DNA of 17,512 nucleotides from a virus: positions 1 to 17,512 of IMG/VR virus record IMGVR_UViG_3300045988_030775. One strand, 5' to 3'. The notes under the pieces are model-generated. The model worked only from the letters and a program-made list of their open reading frames with translations. It made no database searches and had not been told where the DNA came from. Each line of letters starts with the position of its first letter. Position 1 is the first letter of the stretch. The translations under genes and the position numbers were made by a program. Below, in pieces: positions 1-17,512 of this stretch.

Positions 1-119
1 GCGTTTTTTATTTCGTTGTTTTTTTTGTTTTTTTGTGTTGTTCGGCGTGTTGTGTTTTTGTGGTGTGGTATTATATAACTATCAACCAAAGGATGAAGAA
101 AAGGATGGTGGTTGAGATG
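1..119. repeat. Left inverted terminal repeat (119 bp)
   Basis: Hand alignment: 1-119 is identical to the reverse complement of 17394-17512. The first mismatch is at 120 (a) versus the complement of 17393 (t). Confidence 0.97.
50..77 (+). promoter_or_regulatory. Candidate inward-facing promoter inside the left ITR
   Basis: TTGTGT (50-55), 16-nt spacer, TATATA (72-77). An alternative extended -10 is TGGTATTAT (66-74). It lies upstream of the first terminal ORF. Confidence 0.4.
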
Positions 120-302
120 ATGTATCGTCAAGACATTGAGAATGAGGTTGTTGATTATATTCGTAACAGTGGTGAGCGTGTTGTGGATTATGATGTTGAT
201 GCTGTTGTGGATTGTCTTGTTGTTATGTATGAGCGTGAGGGTGTTGAGTTTTATCGTTATTGTTTTGAGACTGTGGTTTTTATGAATCGTGTAGTTGAGT
301 GA
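117..302 (+). CDS. Hypothetical small acidic protein (61 aa), the only + strand gene
   Basis: ORF track 33..302. The likely true start is ATG 117, preceded by GGTGG (107-111) and AAGGA (101-105). The upstream part of the track ORF is just the open ITR. All six Arg codons are CGT, and C is rare in this ORF. Confidence 0.6.
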   Translation: MMYRQDIENEVVDYIRNSGERVVDYDVDAVVDCLVVMYEREGVEFYRYCFETVVFMNRVVE

Positions 303-343
303 GGTTGATGTCTGGTTGGAGTTTTGAGTTAAGATATAGAAAG

Positions 344-375
344 CCCCCTAGGTTATATGCCTAGGGGGTTTTTTT
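344..375. terminator. Bidirectional rho-independent terminator where + and - transcription converge
   Basis: Stem CCCCCTAGG (344-352) / CCTAGGGGG (360-368), 7-nt loop, then T7 (369-375). On the minus strand the same stem is followed by CTTTCTATATCTT. Confidence 0.8.
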
Positions 376-398
376 GAGTTTCAAGTCTCAAGTGGTAA

Positions 399-3020: not shown

Positions 3021-4235
3021 TTAAAAGTTCGGCGGCGCACTAGTGCCGTCCCACACATTCAACAGCGAGTAGACGGTATTATAGCGTGTCCCGTATGGCC
3101 CGAACGGAGGCGTATTGAGGATATTGTTATACAGTTGGGTAAGAAATGAAGCATGAGGCACATTCAACGCGCCCGCCGGGCTTTGGTGATAGGCGCTCAC
3201 CCACAGTATTTGCATTTTCGCGTCATCATACGTCTGTGGGTAGCTCTCGTAATCCTCTGCGAACTGGTTTCGCTGACCCTGCCGTGATTCCGTGCGCCGT
3301 GCCCACGTCTGGAATGCCGCAACTTCGTTACCGGTCATTGCCCTGTCGAACGTGCCGCCCGACTCCATGAGCGCGGCAATGCTCGGCGCGGCGGCGGCAA
3401 ACGCCTCATACCCTGCGGCGTCAACCGCTTTCATAGCGTTCAACACCTGTAGGCGGCGCCCAAAACTCCATTGTGCGATGCCGATACCTTGATTGTTTGG
3501 TTCGACAGCATCCCAGCGCAATGATGATTCAACGGTACCGATGACATAGAGCGCGTATGAGCTTTCTCCGTCGCCTACGCTTGGCGTGCTCTGGCCTTGG
3601 TCGGCGTCCGGCTGACCTGTGCCGCCGCGATATGTCCAAGTCTGGGCGGTTGCCTTGTAGAAAACGGCTTGCGACGACGTCGTGCCCGAACCACTGTGAT
3701 ATACGAGATTATCGCCCTGTAGTTGTATCCACGCGGAGATGTCGCCGTCCACGTTCACGCCCGGGTTATTCCCACCTGTCGGATTATCGCCGGATTCCGG
3801 TGGTTCCGGCAATGCCGTGGGATGCAGATAACCGAGCAACTGGGAACCCTTTGCGAGCGGCAACAATTGACGTACGGCGGGCGTCGGGTTTTGAGTCAGA
3901 ACATCGATATTATCGCCCTGAACACCACCCCACACAATGGCTACGTGACTGCCGGGGTAGTTTTGACTGCCGAACCTCCAAAACACGACATCCCCCATGC
4001 CGGGCGTATAATTTTCGTCCTTTTTCTCGAAAACACGCCCCACGGCGGACGTGGTGGGGAACATGGTGTAATTGCCCTCCGCGTAACCTGTCGGCGTGAT
4101 GCAATCACCTAACGAAAGATTGTAATTATCCATACAGTATTTCGCCCATAAATCCCAGCATTGGGCACCGTAAGCCCCGTCCATGTCCCAGTATTGGTTT
4201 TGGGTTCGCTCCAACCATGCCTGTACGTCTACCAT
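3021..4235 (-). CDS. Virion-associated peptidoglycan hydrolase: N-terminal CHAP domain plus C-terminal lysozyme/transglycosylase-like domain (phi29 gp13 position)
   Basis: CHAP signature GAQCWDL ... GSHVAIVW. The C-terminal part has TVESSLRWDAV ... GIGIAQWS, resembling the E-S / G-h-x-Q motifs of lytic transglycosylases. Confidence 0.8.
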   Translation of the reverse strand: MVDVQAWLERTQNQYWDMDGAYGAQCWDLWAKYCMDNYNLSLGDCITPTGYAEGNYTMFPTTSAVGRVFEKKDENYTPGMGDVVFWRFGSQNYPGSHVAIVWGGVQGDNIDVLTQNPTPAVRQLLPLAKGSQLLGYLHPTALPEPPESGDNPTGGNNPGVNVDGDISAWIQLQGDNLVYHSGSGTTSSQAVFYKATAQTWTYRGGTGQPDADQGQSTPSVGDGESSYALYVIGTVESSLRWDAVEPNNQGIGIAQWSFGRRLQVLNAMKAVDAAGYEAFAAAAPSIAALMESGGTFDRAMTGNEVAAFQTWARRTESRQGQRNQFAEDYESYPQTYDDAKMQILWVSAYHQSPAGALNVPHASFLTQLYNNILNTPPFGPYGTRYNTVYSLLNVWDGTSAPPNF

Positions 4236-4244
4236 GATATTAGT

Positions 4245-4274
4245 ATACCCCGTCCGGCGTACCGGACGGGGTAT
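4245..4274. other. Perfect 13-bp stem hairpin abutting parS-1
   Basis: ATACCCCGTCCGG (4245-4257), loop CGTA, CCGGACGGGGTAT (4262-4274). Confidence 0.7.
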
Positions 4275-4289
4275 GTTTCACGTGAAACA
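4274..4289. promoter_or_regulatory. parS: parS-1, perfect consensus ParB/Spo0J binding palindrome
   Basis: TGTTTCACGTGAAACA, 16/16. It sits within the 18-bp palindrome ATGTTTCACGTGAAACAT (4273-4290) and is intergenic. Confidence 0.85.
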
Positions 4290-4299
4290 TGATTATTCA

Positions 4300-4336
4300 T
4301 AAACAATAAGATACCCCACGACAGTAAGCCGTGGGG
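4300..4336 (-). terminator. Rho-independent terminator after the fibre gene
   Basis: Minus strand: CCCCACG, 9-nt loop, CGTGGGG, followed by TATCTTATTGTTTAT. Confidence 0.6.
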
Positions 4337-4356
4337 TGTGGGGTTGGTGAGTATCG

Positions 4357-5259
4357 TCAGACAGCGACAAAATATGTCAAAACTGCCGAAAGATTCAAAT
4401 TTGATTGCGTTGTGGCGTTCGGGCCCGCCTGATCTACGTACGGGTATCCATCGGAGTTGATGCCAAAAAGAAGATGTGCCGGCATGGTATTACCCGCCCC
4501 AACGAAAACATCAAGCAGTTGCCTTAACGCTCCAGCTGGCCTATACCGTGATGGTATGGCCTGTTCTGCCGGATTTAAGCCGACGGCCCAGCCTGTCGCC
4601 GTGCCGGTTATGGTAACACGCAGTGTGACAAGCTTTGCAAGGGGAGAGTAGTAGGCGTGGTAGTCAATATTTGCCCCGTAGACCTTATCGGTAGTATGAT
4701 ATACTTCGATAGGTTCGACCCCCCTTTCCCGCAATGCTTCCAAGGCCGAGCTTATTGTTGATATTTGGGAGGTGTTGGCGTCGATACGGCTGTCAAGCGT
4801 TTTCGCGGTTCCAGAGTATCCGCCCTGTTTGGTAAACGTCGTGTCGGCCTGCGCTTTGGTATACACATTCGTGGCGTCGGCCTTGCCCTTAACCGTGTCG
4901 GATAGTGAGCTGACAGTCCCCTGCAATGCCGTCAACGCGGTATCTTCCGCTTTGCCGTTGATGGTGGACATGAGCGCCTGCGCGGTCTGCGCGGACGTGA
5001 CGCCAAGCGCGTTGAAATACGATTCCTGTTCGGTGATATCCGCTTTATTGGTTTGCGCCAATACGAGCGCATTATCCGCTGTGGTCTTGGCCGTGTTGGC
5101 GGTAGACGTTGCGGTAGTGGCGTCGGTTTCGTTGCGGTACATTTGCGAATCGATTTTGCTCATGTCGCCGGTGTAGTCGCCGCGCCACGATGGCTTATCG
5201 TCCGGGCTGTCGCCGAACTGGCTGAGATTATAGTGTGGGGTTTTATTGATGCTACTCAT
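4357..5259 (-). CDS. Tail fibre / receptor-binding protein (appendage analogue)
   Basis: The N-terminus MSSINKTPHYNLSQFGDSPDDKPSWRGDYTGDMSKID is typical of Gram-positive phage fibre N-termini. The centre is Ala/Thr-rich and helical. Start at ATG 5259 with SD GAGGAA 7 nt upstream. Confidence 0.7.
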   Translation of the reverse strand: MSSINKTPHYNLSQFGDSPDDKPSWRGDYTGDMSKIDSQMYRNETDATTATSTANTAKTTADNALVLAQTNKADITEQESYFNALGVTSAQTAQALMSTINGKAEDTALTALQGTVSSLSDTVKGKADATNVYTKAQADTTFTKQGGYSGTAKTLDSRIDANTSQISTISSALEALRERGVEPIEVYHTTDKVYGANIDYHAYYSPLAKLVTLRVTITGTATGWAVGLNPAEQAIPSRYRPAGALRQLLDVFVGAGNTMPAHLLFGINSDGYPYVDQAGPNATTQSNLNLSAVLTYFVAV

Positions 5260-5425
5260 GGTGAGGTTCCTCGCTTTCATTACTGCGGGCAGGCGTCCCC
5301 GCCCGAACAATATTATAGTTATCGGAATATTGCGTGTCCAGTTGGGCGGCGGCGAGGGCGGCTACCTGCGATTCCAGTGCGGCGATACGGGATGCCAACG
5401 CGGAAACGTCGGGAACGTCAGACAT
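5252..5425 (-). CDS. Small coiled-coil protein, 57 aa (below the ORF-track size cutoff)
   Basis: Hand translation: MSDVPDVSALASRIAALESQVAALAAAQLDTQYSDNYNIVRAGTPARSNESEEPHHE. It fills the gap between two minus-strand genes. Its stop overlaps the fibre start (ATGAGTAG). Confidence 0.5.
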   Translation of the reverse strand: MSDVPDVSALASRIAALESQVAALAAAQLDTQYSDNYNIVRAGTPARSNESEEPHHE

Positions 5426-5981: not shown

Positions 5982-6776
5982 TTACTCCCATTCTCCATAG
6001 TTATGGCAGTCACTGAAAATTGTATCATACGACCCCCACACCTGCATGAAACACGGTTCGAGGCTCCGCACGATTTCCATGTCCACGTTGATGATGGCCT
6101 GTCGGTACTCCTGTATCAGGCTCATGGCGGACTGGGAGCGGCCCGACGTGTGGGATTTGGTGCTCCCATCCGTAGCGTCGTGTTGCCATTCCGTGCTGGA
6201 TGTACTATGGGACTGAGAAGAGGTATCTTGCGTGCTATGGCTACTGCCGTCCGTATCCGCTTGCGCCTGATTGGCATGAGTCGCGTATCGAGCAAAATCA
6301 CCTTGCACGCCGGTTGCGGGCACTTCCGAGTCGTAGGACTGGGACTTGGTACTACTTGAACTGGTGCCGTCCGAGGAGCTTCGGGTTGCACTATCCTGAG
6401 AGGCGCTGGTTTTGCCGCTGGACTGGGCTACAGTATTGGACAGGCTTTCACTGACCATTTCCATAGTGTTCAATGGGTCATATTTCAACGCTAGCGTCCT
6501 GTAGCGCTCATTGAAATATGGCATGATTTCCGCCATCGTCATCCCCAAGTAAAAAATGAACTGCTGGGCGGTTTCCTGACCAATCTCCCTAAGCGCGTAA
6601 TGGCGGACGATTTTTTCATTCAACTCCGCGCGGTGAGATTCGTTGTAAATCGGGTAATAGTCGGCGCTAAGATGCAGCTTATCATCAGTATCATACCCGA
6701 ATGAAATAAGATTGCCGAGGGTTTCGGTATACTCCCCCGGCGTCGCCATCACATAGGCACTAAAACTCTGTACCAT
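5982..6776 (-). CDS. Lower collar protein (phi29 gp11-like) with a long Ser/Thr/Gln-rich central segment
   Basis: Located after the connector. The N-terminal motif RHYALREIGQETAQQF resembles lower-collar proteins of small podophages. SD GAGAGAGG precedes ATG 6776. Confidence 0.6.
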   Translation of the reverse strand: MVQSFSAYVMATPGEYTETLGNLISFGYDTDDKLHLSADYYPIYNESHRAELNEKIVRHYALREIGQETAQQFIFYLGMTMAEIMPYFNERYRTLALKYDPLNTMEMVSESLSNTVAQSSGKTSASQDSATRSSSDGTSSSSTKSQSYDSEVPATGVQGDFARYATHANQAQADTDGSSHSTQDTSSQSHSTSSTEWQHDATDGSTKSHTSGRSQSAMSLIQEYRQAIINVDMEIVRSLEPCFMQVWGSYDTIFSDCHNYGEWE

Positions 6777-6993
6777 ACGTGGCCTCTCTCGTTTGGTGGC
6801 TAATACGTGCGGCAACGATATCATGATATGTTTTCATTGCAACAACTTGTTTTTTCAGCAGCCCCGCAGCATGTCCGGACATGAGCAAGACCCCGTTTGC
6901 ATAGTTATCCAGGGCCTTTTCAGCCCTACTGATCTTATTGGCGACTTCATACATTTCGCATACAAGTCCTACCATAACGTCACGGGTTATCAT
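6760..6993 (-). CDS. Hypothetical 77-aa protein
   Basis: Its ATG overlaps the connector stop (ATGA), a sign of translational coupling. Confidence 0.65.
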   Translation of the reverse strand: MITRDVMVGLVCEMYEVANKISRAEKALDNYANGVLLMSGHAAGLLKKQVVAMKTYHDIVAARISHQTREATYGTEF

Positions 6994-7949
6994 TGCAATA
7001 CACCTCCGATACCCGCGTCATACGAGGCGGGCATGTCAATATCCGTCGTACCGCTGGCGCTCGAATCCAGCGCGTTGGGTACGCCGGAGCTTTGCGCGTC
7101 CGCATACTCCACCCAGATGTTCAACTGTGGCCATAGGCGGTTGATCTCAGTCGCCGCCGTCTGCCGCGCCTTGAGAAAACTCAATCGGAACACGTCCACC
7201 TTCTCATTGGCTTGCGCCACCTCGTCGGAGATGAGCCGTTCCTTTTTTTCCGTGCCGCTGGACTGGATGCCCAAATATCCTAGTACCTCATTGGTCACTT
7301 GCGTTTTCTGCTGGATGAACTTGTCCAGCAGATAGGGGGTGGTGTTGGGCCACGGTTGGAACATACTACCGGGGTCCAGTGAATCGTAGCCGATAATATA
7401 ATCCTGCCCATCCTGCCGCTGTTGTAACATGTTCTGTACGGTGAGCTTGGTGCGCGGGTCGGCGGTGATGATGGTCGGCAGTTTCAGGCTCTCCAAGTTC
7501 ACGTCATATGCCTTGTCAATGTCGGCGAGGCGTCTCGCATACTGCCATAGGATATCTTTGAAACTCATGCGCATACGATTGTCCCAAATAGGGATGCACT
7601 CTCGGCCCGCCTTGAGTTGCCTGTAATGGTAGTTGACGCCCACCGGCTCGAAGTACGTCGGGTTGTTATACACGTTCAATCGGCCTTGATAACCGGCTTG
7701 CGTGGCGAGGAACCGACCTATGAGTTTGTCTTCGAAGAAGAGCGCGCACCCGTGTTCGCAGAGACACATTTCCAACCATCGTTCATCTACGGTTGGCGGC
7801 AGTCCCCGCCAGCTGAACCGGTTCAATGCCAGTTCGGTCAGCAGATGGCAGTACATTGCGTCAAGGCTGTCGGCGCGTGCCTTGGCGTAATTGCCACGCG
7901 GATGCAACGCGCCGCCCCTACGATTCTGATTTTTCCTCGACCTAGACAT
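6990..7949 (-). CDS. Head-tail connector / upper collar (portal) protein, phi29 gp10-like
   Basis: Motifs NRFSWRGLPPTVDERWLE and GTEKKERLISDEV, about 320 aa, located between the tail knob and the lower collar. Confidence 0.85.
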   Translation of the reverse strand: MSRSRKNQNRRGGALHPRGNYAKARADSLDAMYCHLLTELALNRFSWRGLPPTVDERWLEMCLCEHGCALFFEDKLIGRFLATQAGYQGRLNVYNNPTYFEPVGVNYHYRQLKAGRECIPIWDNRMRMSFKDILWQYARRLADIDKAYDVNLESLKLPTIITADPRTKLTVQNMLQQRQDGQDYIIGYDSLDPGSMFQPWPNTTPYLLDKFIQQKTQVTNEVLGYLGIQSSGTEKKERLISDEVAQANEKVDVFRLSFLKARQTAATEINRLWPQLNIWVEYADAQSSGVPNALDSSASGTTDIDMPASYDAGIGGVLQ

Positions 7950-7964
7950 GCCTCTAGTATAGCA

Positions 7965-10214
7965 CTAGAATAAGATGCCCGGCAATGGGTCGTTATCCGC
8001 CCAATCGGTCACGCCGATATCATCCGGGTTGGTCCATATAGTAGCCCCAGACTCGAACACGCCTTTAATGGTCTGCCGATACTGCTCGGGCAAATCACCT
8101 CGCACGTAACACTCTTGCATCTGCCAGTAGGTGAATTTTGTCATGCATTCCAGCGATTGCGGCGGCGTGATGAAACGCTGGATAAAATACCCGTAACGCA
8201 ACATGTACTCTCCGATGCTCCGCAGAGCTGAGGGTGCGCACGTCTTGAATCGAACCAACACCCCGACAATACCGTTCGCGAGGTTAAAACCGTCTCCGCC
8301 GATGGCGCCGGATGTGGTCGGGGGTGTTAATTGCATCTGCTGTACCTGTGCATTGATGCCCGCAATGGTGTTTTGATAGTCTCCGAACGCGGAACGTTGC
8401 GCGTAATCCGCGTTCATATCCGCCATATTTTGGGCCAACTGGTTTGAAAGCGCTGTAGTCTGAGAGCCGTATGTGTTGGCCTGACTTGTTGTGGCCGCGT
8501 TGGTACTCAGCGAGTTCGCCGTGGAAAGTTGGGCGGCGGTATTGTTGATACTGCGGTTCGCTTCAGTGTTGACACCATTCATGACCGTACCGCCTAATGC
8601 CGATACCGCGCCCCCGACATTGCCCGAAGCGGCGTTACCCGCCACCCCGACCACGCCGTTGACCACGTTATTCAGCTGTGCGAGGTCAGCTCGCTGATTG
8701 TTGATATACGTCGTGTTGTCCAGACTGGTGTTAAGCGAGGTTGCTTGTATCGCGTTATTGGCGTTGCGGTTGCCGATAGCGAGTTTGTTGGCTTGGGTAT
8801 TGTACTGGTTTTGCATGGCCGTGGCCGCAAGAGACTGACTGATGCCCATCTGTGCTTTTTGGTACGCCCAGTCAGCGGACTGTTGACTGTAGGAACGAGT
8901 GTAGGCACTGTTTGCCATTGCCAACTGGGCACCATTGTTGACTATCACAAATTGAGGGAAATTGCTGATGCCAAACGCGGCGTCCAACATTTCCCCGCTA
9001 TCAATGGGCAACCCATTGTTTTTATCAAGAGGAGCGATCTCGCTTGCACCCGCCTTATTGTACCCAACCGGGTAAAAGTTCAAGCGCGCGCCATTGGGCG
9101 CGTAATTATGCACCTCTCTGATAACCAGATTATCGCTTTGGATATTTTCGGGCTTATAGGTGATATTAGTGCCATTCAAGCAAGTGCATTCAACAGTAGA
9201 ATAGGGGTAGCATTTGAGTTTTTTAAGGTTTTTGTAACGTTTAGGGATATTAAAATTATCACGAAAATCATTAATGGTAATAATGTCTTCATATCTGCTG
9301 GGCGCATTTGTGGCCGACTGGGGGAAACGGTAGATACGATTATTTAATTCCGAAGGGAGTGTTTTCCCAAACAGCTTATCTACGACATAGCCGGATTGCT
9401 TAAGAAAGTCATCATCTAAAGAGGGTATCATGTACATGTTTACAATACCCTGTGTTATCCATGAAAAAGCAGAGCCCAATCCCATAAACACTTGGATAGA
9501 CTGGATATCCTTAAAGTACAGTATTTCAGCACCGTTAGCCATGTTCTCAAACAGAGAGCCGCCCGCAGTAGTGAGAGACGGTTTTTCCTGACTGCCCGCG
9601 TCCGCTGACAAATCTACCGTGCTCACGACTATTACGCCGTAATTCAGATTTTTCCCGTCCATGCTGATAAGAGACTTGTATTGTTGGTTTACCGTCACCA
9701 TTTCACTACCGGTGTCCAGCCCTTCGGGTAGTGCGAGGTAACTGCGACCATAATCGGTCATCTGGTTTTCGTTGGCAATGCCGATATGGCCTCGCACCAC
9801 ATAACATGAACCAAACCTAAGTACATGCTGGAACGACTGCCAAACGTCCAACTGTACAGTGAGCTGAGTCGTGTACGCATTGATGTAATCCACGTGGTTG
9901 ATGAAATAATACCAATACCGTGGCGCCTCCAAGTCGGGGTAATCGTTATACACCACGACATAGTTGTAGTTGGACGCCTCGTTAAATGGCAGTTCGACGC
10001 GCACGGGTTGGCCGAACATGTGCATGACTCCATGCACCCTGTCAATGCCGGGCCGTCGGTCAAACCATTCCTGTTGTTTCTGCGGTGATTCGAACCGGGC
10101 TAGGTCACGGTAACTGCTATCCCACGGCACGTTACAGAGTTTCAGCGACGTGTTGGGCGTCCATTGAGCCCAGTTAAACGTCGCCTCGACGTTAGGGTTG
10201 ATATCTCTCAGCAT
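7965..10214 (-). CDS. Distal tail / tail knob protein (phi29 gp9 position)
   Basis: 749 aa from ATG 10214 (MLRDINPNV), with SD AAAGGGA. The track start 10256 lies inside the parS palindrome. The gene follows the capsid gene as in phi29. Confidence 0.65.
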   Translation of the reverse strand: MLRDINPNVEATFNWAQWTPNTSLKLCNVPWDSSYRDLARFESPQKQQEWFDRRPGIDRVHGVMHMFGQPVRVELPFNEASNYNYVVVYNDYPDLEAPRYWYYFINHVDYINAYTTQLTVQLDVWQSFQHVLRFGSCYVVRGHIGIANENQMTDYGRSYLALPEGLDTGSEMVTVNQQYKSLISMDGKNLNYGVIVVSTVDLSADAGSQEKPSLTTAGGSLFENMANGAEILYFKDIQSIQVFMGLGSAFSWITQGIVNMYMIPSLDDDFLKQSGYVVDKLFGKTLPSELNNRIYRFPQSATNAPSRYEDIITINDFRDNFNIPKRYKNLKKLKCYPYSTVECTCLNGTNITYKPENIQSDNLVIREVHNYAPNGARLNFYPVGYNKAGASEIAPLDKNNGLPIDSGEMLDAAFGISNFPQFVIVNNGAQLAMANSAYTRSYSQQSADWAYQKAQMGISQSLAATAMQNQYNTQANKLAIGNRNANNAIQATSLNTSLDNTTYINNQRADLAQLNNVVNGVVGVAGNAASGNVGGAVSALGGTVMNGVNTEANRSINNTAAQLSTANSLSTNAATTSQANTYGSQTTALSNQLAQNMADMNADYAQRSAFGDYQNTIAGINAQVQQMQLTPPTTSGAIGGDGFNLANGIVGVLVRFKTCAPSALRSIGEYMLRYGYFIQRFITPPQSLECMTKFTYWQMQECYVRGDLPEQYRQTIKGVFESGATIWTNPDDIGVTDWADNDPLPGILF

Positions 10215-10239
10215 ACTATCCCTTTCATAAAGAAGGGAG

Positions 10240-10255
10240 TGTTTCACGTGAAACA
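10240..10255. promoter_or_regulatory. parS: parS-2, perfect consensus, core of a 30-bp palindrome (10233-10262)
   Basis: AAGGGAGTGTTTCACGTGAAACACTCCCTT. The 16-mer TGTTTCACGTGAAACA matches 16/16. Confidence 0.85.
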
Positions 10256-10264
10256 CTCCCTTTT

Positions 10265-10292
10265 ATTATATCGCAGATTAGGCGACTGTCAC
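10265..10292 (-). promoter_or_regulatory. Strong sigma-70/SigA-type promoter reading into parS-2 and the tail gene
   Basis: Minus strand: GTGACA (10287-10292), 16-nt spacer, TATAAT (10265-10270). The predicted +1 is near 10257-10259. Confidence 0.55.
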
Positions 10293-10405
10293 AGTGCTCT
10301 GACAGCTGACACCGAACAGCGCGGCCGTCAGCTTGGTGGAACCGGCGGCCACTCCAGTGACTAGGCCGGTATTATCCACTAGGGGTTCGCGTCATCAATC
10401 ATCAT
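10278..10405 (-). pseudogene. Scar of a decayed Big_2-domain gene (phi29 gene 8.5 position)
   Basis: SD GGAGG (10410-10414) precedes ATGATG and an 8-codon ORF, MMIDDANP-stop. In the -1 frame the sequence reads LVDNTGLVTGVAAGSTKLTAALFGVSCQSTVTVA-stop. That aligns with the capsid C-terminus TVSESGVVTGVKAGSSSVTATLFGVSGKKGVTVTAAA. Confidence 0.55.
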
Positions 10406-10420
10406 CCAACCTCCGGTATG

Positions 10421-10458
10421 ACAAAGCCCGGAGCGCTCACGTGGCTTGCGCTCCGGGC
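10421..10458 (-). terminator. Rho-independent terminator downstream of the capsid gene
   Basis: Minus strand: GCCCGGAGCGC, 11-nt loop, GCGCTCCGGGC, then TTTGT. Confidence 0.55.
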
Positions 10459-10480
10459 CTTGTATTGCATCTCGCCGTGA

Positions 10481-10508
10481 GAGAGGGTAGCCAGCCAGCT
10501 ACCCTCTC
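10481..10508. other. 11-bp stem hairpin immediately after the capsid stop codon
   Basis: GAGAGGGTAGC (10481-10491), loop CAGCCA, GCTACCCTCTC (10498-10508). Confidence 0.6.
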
Positions 10509-10514
10509 ATTATA

Positions 10515-12251
10515 TCACGCGGCCGCTGTCACGGTCACGCCCTTCTTGCCGGATACGCCGAACAGCGTGGCGGTGACGCTGGACGAGCCCGCCTTGACGC
10601 CCGTAACAACACCCGACTCGGACACGGTGGCGTTGTCTGAGGTGTCGGATGTCCAAGCGGCTTGCATGGTCACATCGGCGGTTCGCCCGTCAATCATGGT
10701 CGCCGTAGCGGTCGCCTGTGCCGTATGTCCCACGGTCACCGCCGGGACGGTCACGTCAATGGATGCGATGATCGACGGGTTGAATCCGATGACACCAGCA
10801 CCGACCACCGGCACGTTCAGGGCGGCGGATACGGTGCCCGGCACTTCCGGCGTTGCCGGATCCGTGTACAGGGCGGTCGCCGTAACCGGAATAGTGATGT
10901 TCGGCTCGTCAAGGCCGACCACCAGCACGCCGGTGGGCGAAATGTATGTATAATCGCTCTTCGACCTGGCGGTGTCGCCGATACGATATTCGACAGCATC
11001 CGAGCGGAACGTGGCCGCACCCTCGTTGGAGATGGTCGTATCGGCGGTGACCTGTACCGCTCCGCCACGCGCCACGCTGTCCGGCGTGGTCGCGCCTCCT
11101 CCGTACATGGCGAGTCTGAGCTGGAACGTCGGCGTCCCGGCCGTCGTGCCGGTCGGTGTCACCATCTTGGAGGTAGACCCCGCGCCCGTCCAGAACATCA
11201 CGGCCGGGGCGAAGCCGGACACTGAAATGATGTGCTGGACATGCAGATAATGGTTGACTGAATTGATATTGACCGGATTGGTTTGCTGGGTCATCTCGTT
11301 GATAACGGGAATGTCGATAAGGAATTTATCAGTGGTCAGAATGGCTTGCACGCCATCCATGCCAAACCTGTCCTGCGGGATGGTGATAATCCGGTCAATG
11401 GTCGGCTCCGCATCCGTGCGCTGGAACACCGTTGCCAGACCCTGAACATCAAGCGCCGACTTGACTTCGGGGGAGCAGAACAACACAAGCTCATCCGGGC
11501 GGGCAAACGTCGGCATGTGACGCGCATTGTACCGAGTGGATACGAATTTCAGTGTGTCGGCCCATGCGCGAATCTGGCGCAACATGTCGCGAGCGTCGGT
11601 TTCCGAACTGCCCATGTCGTTCAAATCATTGTTCATATGGACGCGCCAATAGCCGCCCAGTTTCGCGTATTCCACGAACTGGTGGCACATGGCCTCAAAC
11701 AAGTCAACCTCGGCGGCATTATAACAGGAGGTGAGAATCTGCGAGGTGAGCGAAGCTAGGCCGGTTTCAGAGGCGAAAGCACGCTGGAGCGTCTTGTCAT
11801 CCGTGGTAGCGGGGTAGAAGTGGGCAAAGTCAAGACGGTGGTAGAGCGAATCCACGTCGATTTTCCACTTGCGGAAATTATCCGCGCCCAGGTATTCCGC
11901 GTCCGGGTCGTACACCTGAGCGAGTGGCATACCCACGGCGATTTCCTGCCACGTGTCGCCAAACACCTGAGATGCGCGCTGGAACACGCTCAGTGGATTA
12001 TTCCAGCGCCACGTGTTCACATAGGTGCCGCCGATACGGTTCACCAGAGCCGAATAAAACTCGTTCTTGAGCTGGGTGGATGACATGAGGGTGGCCATCT
12101 GCCTGTCCATGTTCATCTGAGTGGCCGAGGGCATACGTCGCTGATATTCGGGGGATGCCTCGTTGCGAATCATATTGAGAATCTGCGCATTGTTGAATTC
12201 GGTGAGCGGTCGCAACTGCTGCTTCGGCGTCACCACTGGAGTGGTCGGCAT
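10515..12251 (-). CDS. Major capsid protein with a C-terminal bacterial Ig-like (Big_2) domain, phi29 gp8-like
   Basis: 578 aa following the scaffold gene. The C-terminal ~80 aa (VTVGHTAQATATA...VTGVKAGSSSVTATLFGVSGKKGVTVTA) has the Big_2 pattern, and phi29 gp8 also carries a BIG2 domain. Confidence 0.8.
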   Translation of the reverse strand: MPTTPVVTPKQQLRPLTEFNNAQILNMIRNEASPEYQRRMPSATQMNMDRQMATLMSSTQLKNEFYSALVNRIGGTYVNTWRWNNPLSVFQRASQVFGDTWQEIAVGMPLAQVYDPDAEYLGADNFRKWKIDVDSLYHRLDFAHFYPATTDDKTLQRAFASETGLASLTSQILTSCYNAAEVDLFEAMCHQFVEYAKLGGYWRVHMNNDLNDMGSSETDARDMLRQIRAWADTLKFVSTRYNARHMPTFARPDELVLFCSPEVKSALDVQGLATVFQRTDAEPTIDRIITIPQDRFGMDGVQAILTTDKFLIDIPVINEMTQQTNPVNINSVNHYLHVQHIISVSGFAPAVMFWTGAGSTSKMVTPTGTTAGTPTFQLRLAMYGGGATTPDSVARGGAVQVTADTTISNEGAATFRSDAVEYRIGDTARSKSDYTYISPTGVLVVGLDEPNITIPVTATALYTDPATPEVPGTVSAALNVPVVGAGVIGFNPSIIASIDVTVPAVTVGHTAQATATATMIDGRTADVTMQAAWTSDTSDNATVSESGVVTGVKAGSSSVTATLFGVSGKKGVTVTAAA

Positions 12252-12803: not shown

Positions 12804-12812
12804 ATTATAGCA
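12804..12812 (-). promoter_or_regulatory. Candidate extended -10 promoter (TGCTATAAT) overlapping the polymerase stop codon
   Basis: The minus strand reads TGCTATAAT, and the TAA stop of Pol lies inside the hexamer. There is no good -35. It would start a ~175-nt leader for the late operon. Confidence 0.35.
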
Positions 12813-14265
12813 TAAAAATATGGCCATCATCATTGAGATGACGTGACCCGGGTAGGAACTCATCATAGGGGATGGGAGCGGCGCGATGCACGCCACTCAA
12901 ACGCATTACCGTGTCGCCGTCTGTTTCCACGCCGCAATATTTGCGATTGCCGAGGATACGGAGCCTCTCATAGGTGTGGTCGTTTTTCCACGCGCCTAGT
13001 TTCCGGTCATCTGCTTCGATACCCATAGGCGCGTCCAGCCCGTCCAATATCATGCCGTCGGTGTCGGAGTAGAGCACGCGTTCTGCGTTCGCGTTCATGG
13101 CGCGAGATAGTATTTGCCGTCCGTAAGCGCTGACATACGCGGCGGTCGGCAACCATGCCAGACTGTTGGCCGACTCGGGTTTGTCCACGGTAAAATCCAC
13201 ACCACCATCCACGGACGGTTTCGGATGCAACATGGGACGGTAGAGCGAGGCGCCGAATTTCCCCACCAGCGAGTTTAGTAACAGTTTCGCCATCTGCTTG
13301 CGCTCCCCGGTCGCGGTTTGTTTCACGTGAAACCATTTGTCCACGTATGCATAATATAACCCATGTGACTTGCGGAACTTCCAGCCACCGACATACTCCC
13401 ACACGTGGATGTCATAGTTTTCGGTCAGCGTCTCCCAATCCACATCCGCGACCGGCATGGCAACGACGCCGAGCGTACTATCCAAGCGTTCTCCCTCATA
13501 CCCCCATACGGGTAGGATATTGGTGAGCGTCGCCGTTTTCCCCGTCTTCAAGCGCGCATCAAACGCGATAACATCGACATGGAGCGGATAATCATTGTCG
13601 TGTCGATATTCGCCGTCGTACCATATGGGTGAGCCTACCGGCATGGGGGCATCACGCATGATACTCGGGTAGAGACTGTTCACATCCCAGCTTCGGCAGT
13701 CCCGGTATTCGCCCGTCTTGCTGTGTACTATCGCCCCATAGTAGGCGGGGCGCATCCGATGATAAGCCTCTTTATCCAATGGCGGGAAATGACGCTTGAA
13801 TCCAGCGTAATCCCCGTCTATATAGTCGGTCATCGCCATAGATGCTATCGTAGTGCCCCTAAGGTTCAGGGCGGCGCATTCCTGTGCGATGTTCCACGTG
13901 GTTTCCAAGTCATCCGCACCGCCGAATGTTTCACGTGAAACATTCAGGCCATCATCACGTGTGACATTGCGCACGTCCATAAAATCCACGGTGATGCCGC
14001 CCATGCGCACGCGAAAACCGTAGAAGTGGCCGCGAATGTTGAACGTTCCCCAAACGCCGTCCTTGGCTGGATTCGATTGCAAGGGGAGTCGTGTCAATAG
14101 TTCGGCGGCTATGGGCTTGATGTCCTGCCATCCGTGGGCGCACCATACGCGCGTGTGATAATCGAGCATGGTAAGCCGGATGACGGCGTTCGCCGTCAAT
14201 GGTTCCATGCCGTCATCCGTCAATAGTGTTGCGCCGTCTGTTGCCGCCGTTCGACGCTCTTTCAT
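12805..14265 (-). CDS. Family-B DNA polymerase, protein-primed (phi29 gp2-like), compact at 486 aa
   Basis: Motif A WDVNSLYPS, motif B KLLLNSLVGKFG, motif C YSDTDG, KxY-like NRKYCG, and Exo III YIDGD. Exo I and Exo II look atypical (see findings). Confidence 0.9.
   Translation of the reverse strand: MKERRTAATDGATLLTDDGMEPLTANAVIRLTMLDYHTRVWCAHGWQDIKPIAAELLTRLPLQSNPAKDGVWGTFNIRGHFYGFRVRMGGITVDFMDVRNVTRDDGLNVSRETFGGADDLETTWNIAQECAALNLRGTTIASMAMTDYIDGDYAGFKRHFPPLDKEAYHRMRPAYYGAIVHSKTGEYRDCRSWDVNSLYPSIMRDAPMPVGSPIWYDGEYRHDNDYPLHVDVIAFDARLKTGKTATLTNILPVWGYEGERLDSTLGVVAMPVADVDWETLTENYDIHVWEYVGGWKFRKSHGLYYAYVDKWFHVKQTATGERKQMAKLLLNSLVGKFGASLYRPMLHPKPSVDGGVDFTVDKPESANSLAWLPTAAYVSAYGRQILSRAMNANAERVLYSDTDGMILDGLDAPMGIEADDRKLGAWKNDHTYERLRILGNRKYCGVETDGDTVMRLSGVHRAAPIPYDEFLPGSRHLNDDGHIFML
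13319..13334. promoter_or_regulatory. parS: parS-3 (15/16; 14-bp core intact) inside the polymerase ORF
   Basis: TGTTTCACGTGAAACC. On the coding strand it encodes WFHVKQ. Confidence 0.75.
13927..13942. promoter_or_regulatory. parS: parS-4, perfect consensus inside the polymerase ORF, core of a 22-bp palindrome (13924-13945)
   Basis: GAATGTTTCACGTGAAACATTC. It encodes LNVSRETF. Confidence 0.85.
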
Positions 14266-15344: not shown

Positions 15345-15782
15345 TTACTTGCGCTTGTTTTCTGAGGCCAATTCGAGGTCAAAGAACTTATAACCACGGC
15401 GGCTCTTCTTTTCCACCACCTTGAGAACAAGCGGGTGCTCCCACGTGTCCGGCGTGCCGAAGATGGCGAACAGGTTACCAAAAGCGTGCGCCAGCGCGGG
15501 GGAGGCGGCGGCAAAGTCGCCCTCCTCCGCGTGGATGACAACACGGGTAGATGAGTTGATTTCACCGGTCTCTTGGTTGACCACCTCAACGGTCTGCGCA
15601 AGCACGTTGGTCACATGCAATAGCTCATTAAGATGTTCGTCCACCTTGTTGGCTGTCTGCATGGCGTTGTACAGCGCCATTTTACCATCCATAGTAGAGG
15701 TGTCGAAGAAATGGGATACGGCGTTAGCGCCGTTTGCCGCGAAATTGTTGCCGTTTGCTGTGGTCAGTTCGTTGTCAGCCAT
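15345..15782 (-). CDS. Early protein, 145 aa; candidate ssDNA-binding protein by position only
   Basis: Clean ORF with SD AAGGAAGG, lying just upstream of the TP-Pol module. The function is a guess from replication-module context. Confidence 0.6.
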   Translation of the reverse strand: MADNELTTANGNNFAANGANAVSHFFDTSTMDGKMALYNAMQTANKVDEHLNELLHVTNVLAQTVEVVNQETGEINSSTRVVIHAEEGDFAAASPALAHAFGNLFAIFGTPDTWEHPLVLKVVEKKSRRGYKFFDLELASENKRK

Positions 15783-15812: not shown

Positions 15813-16127
15813 TTAATTATTTTCCTCGGAGATGATATCATCTTCAACCACGTTGCCATTAACCGACCCCGGATAGTTGATAATGGTATCATCCCCAAAT
15901 TCGCAATTAGCCCAATAGATTGCCTCGTTCATGCGCGTCACCTGCGCATGGTATTCGGCGGACATGGGGAGCATGTCCCTGTTAATCTTACGGGCTTTTT
16001 TCATAGCCGTGTCAGCTGTGCGACACGCGCCGTTGACAACCACTTCGGTGTCCACGAGTTCGCCGTTTTCACTGCGCGTAACACCGCGCACAATACTATA
16101 GTGCTTGGCTCGCTTGATGTATGCCAT
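15813..16127 (-). CDS. Hypothetical early protein, 104 aa
   Basis: Start at ATG 16127 (MAYIKRAK), 7 nt after AAGGCGG. The track start 16202 overlaps the upstream gene. Confidence 0.65.
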   Translation of the reverse strand: MAYIKRAKHYSIVRGVTRSENGELVDTEVVVNGACRTADTAMKKARKINRDMLPMSAEYHAQVTRMNEAIYWANCEFGDDTIINYPGSVNGNVVEDDIISEENN

Positions 16128-16146
16128 AGTCATACCGCCTTTTTTC

Positions 16147-16656
16147 TTAGTATTCCTGCTGTTGCGACATTCTTGCAATGTCTTCATCAGTATACCGTCC
16201 ATTGGTCAGATTGTCAAAACAGAGACACGCGATTTTGATGATAGTCTGAGCGAACTCATCACCCCCCCACGTCTGGCACATCTCATAGCAAGTCGCGCCC
16301 TTGACATGGCAGGCAGCGCACCACGCCACCATTGCCGGACAGTAGATAAGCCCGGACAACATTTCAATGTCCTGCGTTCGTGACAATGCGACGTACATTG
16401 ATGACTGAGGCGAGATGCTTAGACAAATATTCGCCGCGTGTTCGACACTGTCGGCAAACGCCACTTGGCCACCCTGAGGCTTATAAAAATCCTTGAGCAG
16501 TGCTACGGTACGGCAAAACGTTTCCCAGTCGCCCTCACCACGGTTGTATTCCCGCAAGTGTAGATTACGCCGACGGCCACGAATGACACGGCGCACACGG
16601 TCATCGTCCAGCACGCCATCATCAAACCAATTCGTGCGGTTATCATTACTCTTCAT
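16147..16656 (-). CDS. Hypothetical early protein, 169 aa, Cys-rich
   Basis: ATG 16656 (MKSNDN) with SD GGAGAGG, 2 nt after the preceding stop. Confidence 0.65.
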   Translation of the reverse strand: MKSNDNRTNWFDDGVLDDDRVRRVIRGRRRNLHLREYNRGEGDWETFCRTVALLKDFYKPQGGQVAFADSVEHAANICLSISPQSSMYVALSRTQDIEMLSGLIYCPAMVAWCAACHVKGATCYEMCQTWGGDEFAQTIIKIACLCFDNLTNGRYTDEDIARMSQQQEY

Positions 16657-16658
16657 AA

Positions 16659-16910
16659 TCAACACCTCTCCAACAACGACGTATCAGCCAACGCCCTCGC
16701 ATCAACCAGCATATGAGCCACCTGCGCGTAATCACACGCATCAAACGCCACAGCCGACCAAACCAAACGACGCCTGCCGCCAGCCTGAGACCGCAACAGC
16801 ACCGCATATCGTAGTTCATATATCCAATTATGAGGACAATACACCACCCGTACATCACCTTTCTCAAACTTGGACGGAAACACGGCCACAACCTCATCAC
16901 TCACCATCAT
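16659..16910 (-). CDS. Hypothetical early protein, 83 aa
   Basis: ATGATG at 16910 overlaps the upstream stop (ATGATGGTGAGTGA). It was chosen over the W/R/C-rich alternative frame 16646..16900. Confidence 0.55.
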   Translation of the reverse strand: MMVSDEVVAVFPSKFEKGDVRVVYCPHNWIYELRYAVLLRSQAGGRRRLVWSAVAFDACDYAQVAHMLVDARALADTSLLERC

Positions 16911-17157
16911 CAAACACCCCCTCAAACGGCAACCACACTTTAACAGTACCATTCAAAAACCCCGTTTTTAGGTCAAACGAGGAATGAGCAAAACCAACAT
17001 ACACATCAAGTCCGGCAAACGCATGGCGAACAATATCAAGTACACCGTCTAACGCCTCCTTAAACGTACCGGCTGGATATGGGCCCCTTACTTGCACATA
17101 CTCAGTCGTGAGCTCGAACACCGTAAAATCATCAGGCGTAACAGTAAAACACCACAT
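16897..17157 (-). CDS. Hypothetical early protein, 86 aa
   Basis: ATG 17157 (MWCFTV) is preceded by GGTGGGTG. An alternative GTG start lies at 17172. Confidence 0.6.
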   Translation of the reverse strand: MWCFTVTPDDFTVFELTTEYVQVRGPYPAGTFKEALDGVLDIVRHAFAGLDVYVGFAHSSFDLKTGFLNGTVKVWLPFEGVFDDGE

Positions 17158-17162
17158 TTTAA

Positions 17163-17396
17163 TCACACCCACCGTTCTCCATAAGTCCTATAAAATTCCT
17201 TAAAATCAAAATTACGATAATACTCAAAACCATCATCCAAGTCAACAAAAGAACTCATCGTAATCCAACGGCCACACATCCCGTCATACATTTGAAATTG
17301 ATAATCAACCCCACAGTAAGCGCAAATCGCCTCACGCCACCGAAAACGACGGTTCAACCCAGTGAACCCGTCAACAACAGTAAAATAATGCCACAT
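17163..17396 (-). CDS. Hypothetical first early protein, 77 aa
   Basis: The likely start is the ATG forming the last 3 nt of the right ITR (17394-17396), using the same SD as the left-end gene. The track N-terminus is the open ITR. Confidence 0.6.
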   Translation of the reverse strand: MWHYFTVVDGFTGLNRRFRWREAICAYCGVDYQFQMYDGMCGRWITMSSFVDLDDGFEYYRNFDFKEFYRTYGERWV

Positions 17397-17512
17397 CTCA
17401 ACCACCATCCTTTTCTTCATCCTTTGGTTGATAGTTATATAATACCACACCACAAAAACACAACACGCCGAACAACACAAAAAAACAAAAAAAACAACGA
17501 AATAAAAAACGC
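17394..17512. repeat. Right inverted terminal repeat (119 bp)
   Basis: Reverse complement of 1-119 with no mismatch. Confidence 0.97.
17436..17463 (-). promoter_or_regulatory. Candidate inward-facing promoter inside the right ITR (mirror copy)
   Basis: Same sequence as 50-77 because of the ITR. It would drive the minus-strand early operon. Confidence 0.4.

Follow-up and report, generated by a model that had tools for sequence, protein, structure and literature searches.

A host-type parS within a hairpin at the capsid-to-knob junction of a phi29-like gut phage

Is a bacterial partition site that lies at the predicted start of a viral transcript a switch for the genes downstream, or does its position have another origin? 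The question is raised by IMG/VR virus record IMGVR_UViG_3300045988_030775, the 17,512-nt genome of a phage related to phi29, which was analysed over its full length and is called the window below. On the minus strand, between the gene for the major capsid protein (MCP) and the gene for the tail knob, a perfect palindrome that starts just past a −10 hexamer encloses parS, the loading site of ParB proteins. An earlier note on this DNA had proposed that host ParB, bound there, gates expression of the tail genes. We favor a different reading, to which we give a probability of roughly 0.55: the palindrome would be dual-coded, as a host-type parS in DNA and as a hairpin in RNA, and its promoter position would reflect the reuse of a hairpin and not a switch operated by ParB.

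The palindrome at the capsid-to-knob junction

The elements on which the earlier note was built (GTGACA, 16 nt, TATAAT, a 30-bp palindrome on parS, a Shine-Dalgarno [SD] sequence and the knob ATG) were all found in the sequence where it had placed them. On the minus strand, GTGACA (10292-10287) and TATAAT (10270-10265) are separated by a 16-nt spacer, and the perfect 30-bp palindrome AAGGGAGTGTTTCACGTGAAACACTCCCTT (10262-10233) starts 2 nt past TATAAT. From the capsid stop codon to the knob gene, the junction comprises the following features.

10509-10517, minus strand: extended −10 TGATATAAT, overlapping the capsid stop codon TGA; TGATAYRAT is kept across differing capsid-end contexts
10481-10508, minus strand: hairpin 1, the positional equivalent of the parS hairpin (−21.4 kcal/mol); covaries
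10426-10459, minus strand: hairpin 2, the "terminator" of the earlier note (−28.2 kcal/mol); covaries; weak U-tail UUUGUCAU
10379-10402, minus strand: fossil start of an alternative knob allele, MIDDANP and a stop codon, with its SD GGAGG at 10410-10414; matches the knob N terminus of relative L070
10278-10376, minus strand: fossil of the last 32 codons of another capsid allele, DNTGLVTGVAAGSTKLTAALFGVSCQSTVTVA and a stop codon, by comparison with the capsid ends of relatives L046 and L049
10287-10292, minus strand: −35-like GTGACA, Val-Thr codons of the fossil capsid C terminus
10265-10270, minus strand: −10 hexamer TATAAT, with a predicted +1 at about 10258
10233-10262, minus strand: 30-bp palindrome, parS plus AAGGGAG/CTCCCTT arms, RNA hairpin (from sequence, folding and covarying outer arm pairs)
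10240-10255: parS-2 core TGTTTCACGTGAAACA, the central 16 bp of the palindrome, matching the parS consensus at 16 of 16 positions
10227-10234, minus strand: T-rich tail TTCTTTAT, terminator-like, directly after CTCCC
10219-10225, minus strand: SD AAAGGGA of the tail-knob gene, conserved in relatives; the knob ATG is at 10214-10212

The translation of the fossil capsid end (10376-10278) finishes in TKLTAALFGVSCQSTVTVA and a stop codon, and the first two T of the tail TTCTTTAT are also paired within the palindrome. By spacing, a transcription start near 10258 is predicted to put parS at about +4 to +19. A GTG at 10256 was considered as an alternative start of the knob gene and rejected: indels between hairpin and SD among the relatives are not of triplet length, and this spacer is therefore non-coding.

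Chance does not readily account for the parS match. A single perfect 16-mer is expected about 4e-6 times in 17.5 kb, and the window holds four parS-like sites (three perfect, one with one mismatch) versus 0.12 expected, a number reached in none of 200 shuffles. To place the site among its relatives, we used scans of IMG/VR that yielded 148 related loci, corresponding to 115 non-redundant contigs; the map of parS slots and the comparison of junctions cover the first 80 relatives, and conservation of the parS/TATAAT unit was assessed in 55 non-redundant relatives that carry it. The parS-2 core is perfect in 53 of these 55, the other two being decayed copies, and shows no compensatory drift, unlike the outer arms, which covary. 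Judged by its match and its conservation, the core is a genuine host-type parS. ParABS and this parS consensus have been reported for gut bacteria, including a Bifidobacterium (PMC10197239).

The same 30 bp have properties of an RNA element. The palindrome folds at −20.3 kcal/mol (z = −7.2), compared with −5.8 kcal/mol for a bare parS (parS-1), and its GGGAG/CTCCC flanks contribute about 14 kcal/mol. The outer arm pairs change on both sides, from AU to GC in five sequences and from GC to AU in one. The arms thus appear to be constrained in structure and the core in sequence, as a dual constraint predicts. The suggestion of the earlier note that the additional flanking symmetry hints at an RNA-level role is strengthened by these folding and covariation data, as well as by a hairpin slot that is kept in relatives without parS (see below). 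The note overlooked that the palindrome and its T-rich tail are, by their sequence, terminator-like. In about 15 variant relatives, TTATTTTTTT after the parS hairpin makes a textbook intrinsic terminator, and a canonical tail of seven to nine T is present in many relatives.

The hairpin slot in relatives and the promoter hexamers

No parS with up to two mismatches was found in seven cultured relatives (BD811P1, BD811P2, BP1, BadAztec1, BadAargau2, the Arthrobacter phage Anjali and the Curtobacterium phage Pize). All seven have TAnAAT (TAGAAT, TAAAAT or TATAAT), a strong GC-rich hairpin, a T-rich tail and an SD at this junction; in six, the capsid-to-knob spacer is short, and TAnAAT touches the 5′ foot of the hairpin. 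Among the relatives from IMG/VR, the junction takes several forms. The short form (60-76 nt) runs from the capsid stop codon through (TG)ATATAAT and the parS hairpin to a T-rich tail, which is followed by SD and ATG, and its hairpin starts about 8-17 nt past the capsid stop; the parS hairpin of the window starts 15 nt past the fossil capsid stop. In a parS-free form (110-125 nt), TGATAYRAT leads into hairpin 1, which a linker joins to hairpin 2, and SD and ATG come last. All 12 loci whose knob allele is 58% identical have this form, as do L022, L027, L029 and L065, which have the same knob gene as the window and lack the parS/TATAAT unit. Junctions of 154-173 nt are intermediate fusions. The 300-nt junction of the window contains, in order and as identified by translation, a two-hairpin junction, 7 codons of the alternative knob, 32 codons of a capsid allele and the parS unit, and from these remains the spacer is recognizable as a recombination scar. 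Its layout is shared by more than 20 relatives.

Hairpin 1 and the parS hairpin are found behind the same extended −10, (TG)ATAYAAT, in the same capsid-end contexts and with the same stem foot, GGGAGTGT/ACACTC; CCTAGTGATACAAT, for instance, is followed by hairpin 1 in L004 but by the parS hairpin in L036 and L044. A hairpin 1 of the L069 type (GGGAGTGT-GGCTTAAGCC-ACACTCTC) and the parS hairpin (GGGAGTGT-TTCACGTGAA-ACACTCCC) differ essentially at the top only. Given these shared contexts and feet, the two hairpins are interchangeable cassettes in one slot. The hairpins without parS covary strongly (7 pairs with two-sided changes). By this comparison, the slot is older than parS, and the top of its hairpin became parS in this clade.

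These comparisons bear on the simplest alternative, in which parS-2 serves for ParB loading only, and its flanks and T-rich tail are incidental and have no function in RNA. In its favor, parS-1, parS-3 and parS-4 persist without long GC-rich flanks, and the covariation statistics of the parS arms are weak. However, a strong and clearly covarying hairpin is retained at this position by relatives without parS, the fold gains 14 kcal/mol from the flanks, and perfect T-runs follow it in relatives. Extended parS palindromes have also arisen independently elsewhere: the distant phi29-like phage L307 has a 32-bp palindrome, TCACCCCA-parS-TGGGGTGA, and L325 has AAAAA-parS-TTTTT. We consider a purely partition-related role improbable.

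Of the two promoter hexamers, one holds up. TATAAT occurs four times on the coding strand of the 886 nt of internal intergenic DNA versus 0.12 expected (0 of 3000 shuffles). At the junction, it is present in 50 of the 55 non-redundant relatives, is one substitution off in the remaining 5, and is retained even where the upstream DNA has been replaced. On the basis of this enrichment and conservation, the −10 looks functional. The −35 fares differently: GTGACA, a 5/6 match, is found in the window and in 33 of the 55 relatives, the score is 3/6 or less in at least 8 of the 55, and the hexamer consists of the fossil Val-Thr codons, lies inside the capsid gene in native short-form genomes and is absent where the upstream DNA is of another kind. 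To call this promoter the clearest in the genome, as the earlier note did, is an overstatement, since the site at 10292-10265 scores 11/12 and ties with the sites at 16217-16189 and 5340-5312.

The tail, connector and collar genes were also thought to depend on this promoter, due to a terminator upstream of it. The hairpin of that terminator is real (10459-10426, −28.2 kcal/mol); its U-tract UUUGUCAU is poor. In 16 of the first 80 relatives (4 with the same knob and 12 with the other allele), the parS/TATAAT unit is absent and hairpin 2 abuts the knob SD with no promoter between them. Hairpin 2 must therefore be read through, and the tail genes do not appear to depend on the parS-associated promoter. 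Relatives that lack the unit, or that have parS inside the knob gene instead, number 19, and no parS is present within 420 nt of the capsid stop in 15 of the 115 contigs.

Several modules have a related build. At 12804-12843, a hairpin with a T-run (12843-12825) is followed by a TATAAT (12809-12804) that overlaps the stop codon TAA of the polymerase gene; this module is located upstream of the gene preceding the capsid gene and has the terminator-then-−10 layout of the capsid-to-knob junction. In the region 5281-5340, TGGACA-17-TATAAT (5340-5312, 11/12) precedes the fibre gene, and a GC-rich hairpin, CGGGCGGGGACGCCTGCCCG, follows 7 nt later. The region 10420-10517, which is also present in L069-L080 and others, consists of the extended −10 TGATATAAT, two strongly covarying hairpins and a weak U-tail. 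It could give rise to a small RNA of about 90 nt, no pRNA having been found in these phages, or could fold so that CTCACGG is paired with the CCGGAG of the SD downstream.

The distribution of parS and the possible role of ParB

The four parS sites of the window are located as follows.

4274-4289: parS-1, perfect, in the intergenic region between the fibre and CHAP genes, just 5′ of a conserved hairpin
10240-10255: parS-2, perfect, at the capsid-to-knob junction
13319-13334: parS-3, one mismatch, inside the DNA polymerase gene
13927-13942: parS-4, perfect and within a 22-bp palindrome, inside the DNA polymerase gene, read V-S-R-E-T

Five slots hold every parS-like match in the first 80 relatives (window-equivalent positions of about 4280, 10100, 10248, 13327 and 13935), and three of the five are coding. 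In the slot at about 10100, parS is inside the alternative knob allele, at +122, where it has the same V-S-R-E-T reading as parS-4; in L073 and L077-L080 it is a perfect parS encoded within the 58%-identical allele. At least one parS is present in 75 of the 82 near-complete relatives. Conservation of the two sites in the polymerase gene is in the top 6-13% of windows, that is, mildly above average, and a selection test was not decisive. parS-1 is decayed or deleted in many relatives. As far as positions can tell, parS is distributed as would be expected if the genome as a whole needed a few sites for loading ParB, and gene-specific gating fits less well.

The surroundings of parS-1 have features of their own. 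Its core has been neatly excised in several relatives (CCCCATGAACATACCCC). Directly 3′ of it (window 4233-4291) is a covarying and highly conserved hairpin, ACCCCGTCCGG-TACG-CCGGACGGGGT (−23.1 kcal/mol), which leads into TATACT-N6-ATG. This arrangement, in which there is no SD, is spaced like a leaderless promoter of the CHAP gene. The fibre gene upstream of parS-1 (4357-5310) is strongly mosaic across L001-L080, with many unrelated alleles joining the one conserved hairpin, a pattern that suggests swapping of receptor-binding proteins at that hairpin.

We propose that host ParB would load onto the phage DNA at the three to four parS of this 17.5-kb linear, protein-primed genome and, by analogy with phi29 and Spo0J, would act genome-wide, to position or partition the phage DNA of dividing cells or to let it persist there. 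Candidate pay-offs are inheritance of a carrier state through division, polar positioning and interference with host segregation; because the host is most likely non-sporulating (see below), the pay-off would differ from that of phi29. At the junction, the parS hairpin fills an older slot, in which a −10 abuts a strong hairpin with a T-rich tail. Transcripts of the capsid gene would form the full 13-bp hairpin beside a U-rich tract and should be attenuated, terminated or protected at their 3′ ends. The abutting −10 could restart transcription inside the stem or at its foot, and such transcripts would keep a truncated 5′ hairpin; with the 0-nt spacing between −10 and stem of the cultured relatives, they would lose most of the 5′ arm. 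From its conserved anatomy, the whole unit may be a terminator with an embedded restart promoter. We propose that the promoter position of parS is a matter of economy, in that a 16-bp palindrome arises at the least cost in a hairpin that is already there and does not code for protein, and that ParB does not operate the promoter.

Several observations weigh against the dual-coded reading. parS-2 is the best conserved of the parS sites. Covariation of the parS arms is modest (2 pairs, among close sequences, with a score reached in 34 of 500 shuffles), which can be attributed to the close relationship of the sequences. The T-tract of the window, TTCTTTAT, is interrupted, and a terminator scan did not list the site. 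With 2-4 nt between −10 and stem, transcripts of the window would keep a 9-bp hairpin, and escape from termination would be less clean. The very distant phage L273 has two parS in its capsid-to-knob spacer, and the junction position could therefore matter locally. The host assignment is based on endolysin and capsid similarity, with no isolate.

Part of this also speaks for the reading of the earlier note, in which ParB at parS-2 (about +4 to +19) is an operator or roadblock that gates expression of the tail, connector and collar genes. The geometry is right, with the −10 ending at 10265 and parS at 10255-10240, and RNA polymerase would collide with a ParB dimer bound at +4 to +19. The −10 appears functional, parS-2 is the most conserved parS and is at a constant 9-10 nt from the −10, parS-1 also adjoins the promoter-like TATACT-N6-ATG, and two parS are found in tandem at the corresponding junction of a distant phage. 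ParB-family proteins, such as KorB, can repress promoters. The constant spacing, however, is explained by recent common descent. Three of the five slots are intragenic, and the alternative knob allele has its parS at +122 in coding sequence and none at the promoter. Moreover, 19 relatives manage without the unit, most parS of other phi29-like clades are preceded by a stop codon and followed by an SD, without a promoter that can be seen, and no benefit is evident in gating the tail genes and not those for capsid, replication and lysis. Gating by ParB gains nothing from the comparison of relatives; it is unsupported, and we regard it as unlikely.

A combined version assigns three functions to one 30-bp sequence, as ParB loading site, as terminator of capsid transcripts and as the initially transcribed region of the promoter, with ParB occupancy deciding between read-through and restart into the tail genes. 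If it were true, virion completion would be coupled to host ParB/CTP or to cell-cycle state, and the other parS would attach the phage genome to the segregation machinery of the host, by which it would be carried along when the cell divides. We find this version quite unlikely.

In the opposite direction, the hairpin could be all that matters, as a terminator or a 5′ stabilizer, with the identity of parS without consequence and ParB not engaging the phage DNA. The slot is indeed conserved without parS in the cultured relatives, and no parS within one mismatch was found in a sister clade of 103 contigs (L158-L260, with a capsid related to those of BD811P1 and MT836241). However, a stem needs pairing alone, yet the 16-nt core is invariant in 53 of 55 relatives, and three further parS copies are present, two of them in coding DNA, at chance expectations of about 4e-6 per perfect 16-mer. 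It is very unlikely that parS is inconsequential.

It is hardly credible that an unrecognised early protein of the phage binds the palindrome and regulates late transcription as p4 does in phi29, whose late promoters need a phage activator: several early open reading frames (ORFs) at 15813-17480 match no Pfam or PHROGs family, but three of the copies are exactly identical to the universal chromosomal parS, the same 16-mer is present in many unrelated phi29-like clades with differing early genes, and searches of all small ORFs against Pfam and PHROGs found no phage-encoded ParB, helix-turn-helix or other DNA-binding domain. That phi29 late promoters have no −35 (PMC2731898) would fit such a protein as well.

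The phage, its likely host and comparison with known systems

The genome of the window is complete and linear (17,512 nt), has perfect terminal inverted repeats of 119 bp, and carries nearly all of its genes on the minus strand. The repeats, together with homologues of DNA polymerase B, gp9, gp10 and gp16, identify it as a phi29-like podophage. Gene identities were obtained from Pfam and PHROGs searches.

15345-15782: phi29-type single-stranded DNA-binding protein
12805-14265: protein-primed family B DNA polymerase
10515-12251, minus strand: phi29-like MCP (PF25622, 3.5e-85)
7965-10214, minus strand: gp9-like tail knob (phrog_2248 at 3.9e-87, PF20934)
6990-7949: gp10 connector
5982-6824: lower collar
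3021-4235: CHAP/lysozyme protein
1862-2989: gp16 packaging ATPase
1483-1851: holin
751-1473: Amidase_2 endolysin

The terminal repeats (regions of window 1-398 and 17394-17512) are full of T/A runs. The left 398 nt have no convincing minus-strand gene and contain two minus-strand TATAAT (159-154 and 75-70) facing the genome end.

The nearest cultured phages are the Bifidobacterium podophages BadAztec, BadAargau, BP1 and BD811P1-3 (MCP identity of 37-41%), whose gene order is fully syntenic with that of the window, and the amidase catalytic domain is 76-80% identical to the amidases of Bifidobacterium dentium phages. Because of the endolysin and capsid similarity and the synteny, the host is most likely a human-gut Bifidobacterium, which does not form spores. 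When bacterial genomes were scanned with the capsid protein, the sole match was an unrelated immunoglobulin-domain hit in a metagenome-assembled genome of the Polyangia. An Rfam search of the whole window at permissive E-values returned two sub-threshold chance matches only and no packaging RNA (pRNA). Boxes for Spo0A (TGTCGAA) are at most marginally over-represented (6 versus 2.65 expected; 9 of 200 shuffles reach 6).

Beyond the clade of the window, MT836241, a member of the sister clade, has a single parS (position 10864 of L088). It is in a segment 83% identical to window 4129-5350, and import by recombination is therefore probable. More distant clades were reached by further capsid queries and by an exact-parS scan of IMG/VR, the search with the capsid alignment having given close relatives only. 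Among the 120 contigs listed by the exact-parS scan are about 20 other, deeply divergent phi29-like phages, whose MCPs are 22-29% identical to that of the window and whose GC content is low. They carry one to three perfect parS (L273, L289, L307, L315, L325, L330, L360, L377 and others), most of which directly follow a stop codon or directly precede an SD. In L273, two parS are in tandem in the capsid-to-knob spacer, with capsid and knob genes confirmed, and in L360 parS is near both genome ends. Since parS is present in about 20 divergent phi29-like phages among the matches listed, ParB hijacking may be a general habit of the family; parS is not mentioned in a 2024 review of phi29-like phages.

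To our knowledge, use of the host's parS and ParB is known from no well-studied virulent phage other than phi29, and the accepted reason is spore entrapment. Here, a clade of more than 100 human-gut genomes holds one to four host-type parS in fixed slots. We suggest that ParB hijacking need not be tied to sporulation, which offers a lead on the persistence of "strictly lytic" gut phages, and that an RNA hairpin already in place can take up a palindrome to which a protein binds. The locus also advises caution, in that adjacent motifs alone do not give a regulatory logic.

The parS of the window share with chromosomal parS/ParB-CTP sites (consensus tGTTNCACGTGAAACa) the 16/16 match, the palindrome and the presence of several clustered copies. 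Chromosomal parS, in contrast, are near the origin, whereas those of the window are on a 17.5-kb linear viral genome with protein-capped ends, and three of their five slots are coding. Lowered transcription due to a ParB-type protein near a promoter is known from KorB at OB sites of RK2, P1 ParB and silencing by F SopB, and the gating proposed in the earlier note would work in this manner. Those systems have a dedicated plasmid or phage ParB homologue and partners such as KorA, unlike the genome of the window, in which none were found.

On the RNA side, a counterpart is the T7 terminator T-phi, an intrinsic terminator after gene 10. As in the window, where the T-tract is interrupted, a strong hairpin with a U-rich tail follows the most highly expressed structural gene, and the tail genes are located beyond it. 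Unlike in T7, the −10 abuts the 5′ foot of the stem in every lineage examined, which suggests re-initiation, and the stem encodes parS in this clade. Stem-loops at the 5′ termini of the ompA, ermC and aprE leaders stabilize bacterial mRNAs. From the predicted +1 at about 10258, the transcript of the window would likewise open with a 9-bp hairpin that leaves hardly any 5′ nucleotides unpaired, whereas, unlike those leaders, the full-length parS hairpin looks like a terminator.

The comparison with phi29 is the closest overall. PMC2731898 describes five parS in phi29 and a host Spo0J that carries the phage DNA into the forespore, and phi29 and Nf, like the phage of the window, are virulent podophages of the phi29 family with several host-type parS and no ParB of their own. 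For phi29 the pay-off is spore entrapment, with Spo0A boxes, whereas the host of the window is most likely non-sporulating and its boxes are at most marginal. A parS built into a terminator/promoter hairpin, as in the window, is not described for phi29 in the sources consulted. The element is best filed as a variant of the phi29-type phage-borne parS, fused to a conserved terminator/promoter hairpin in a phage of a probably non-sporulating host.

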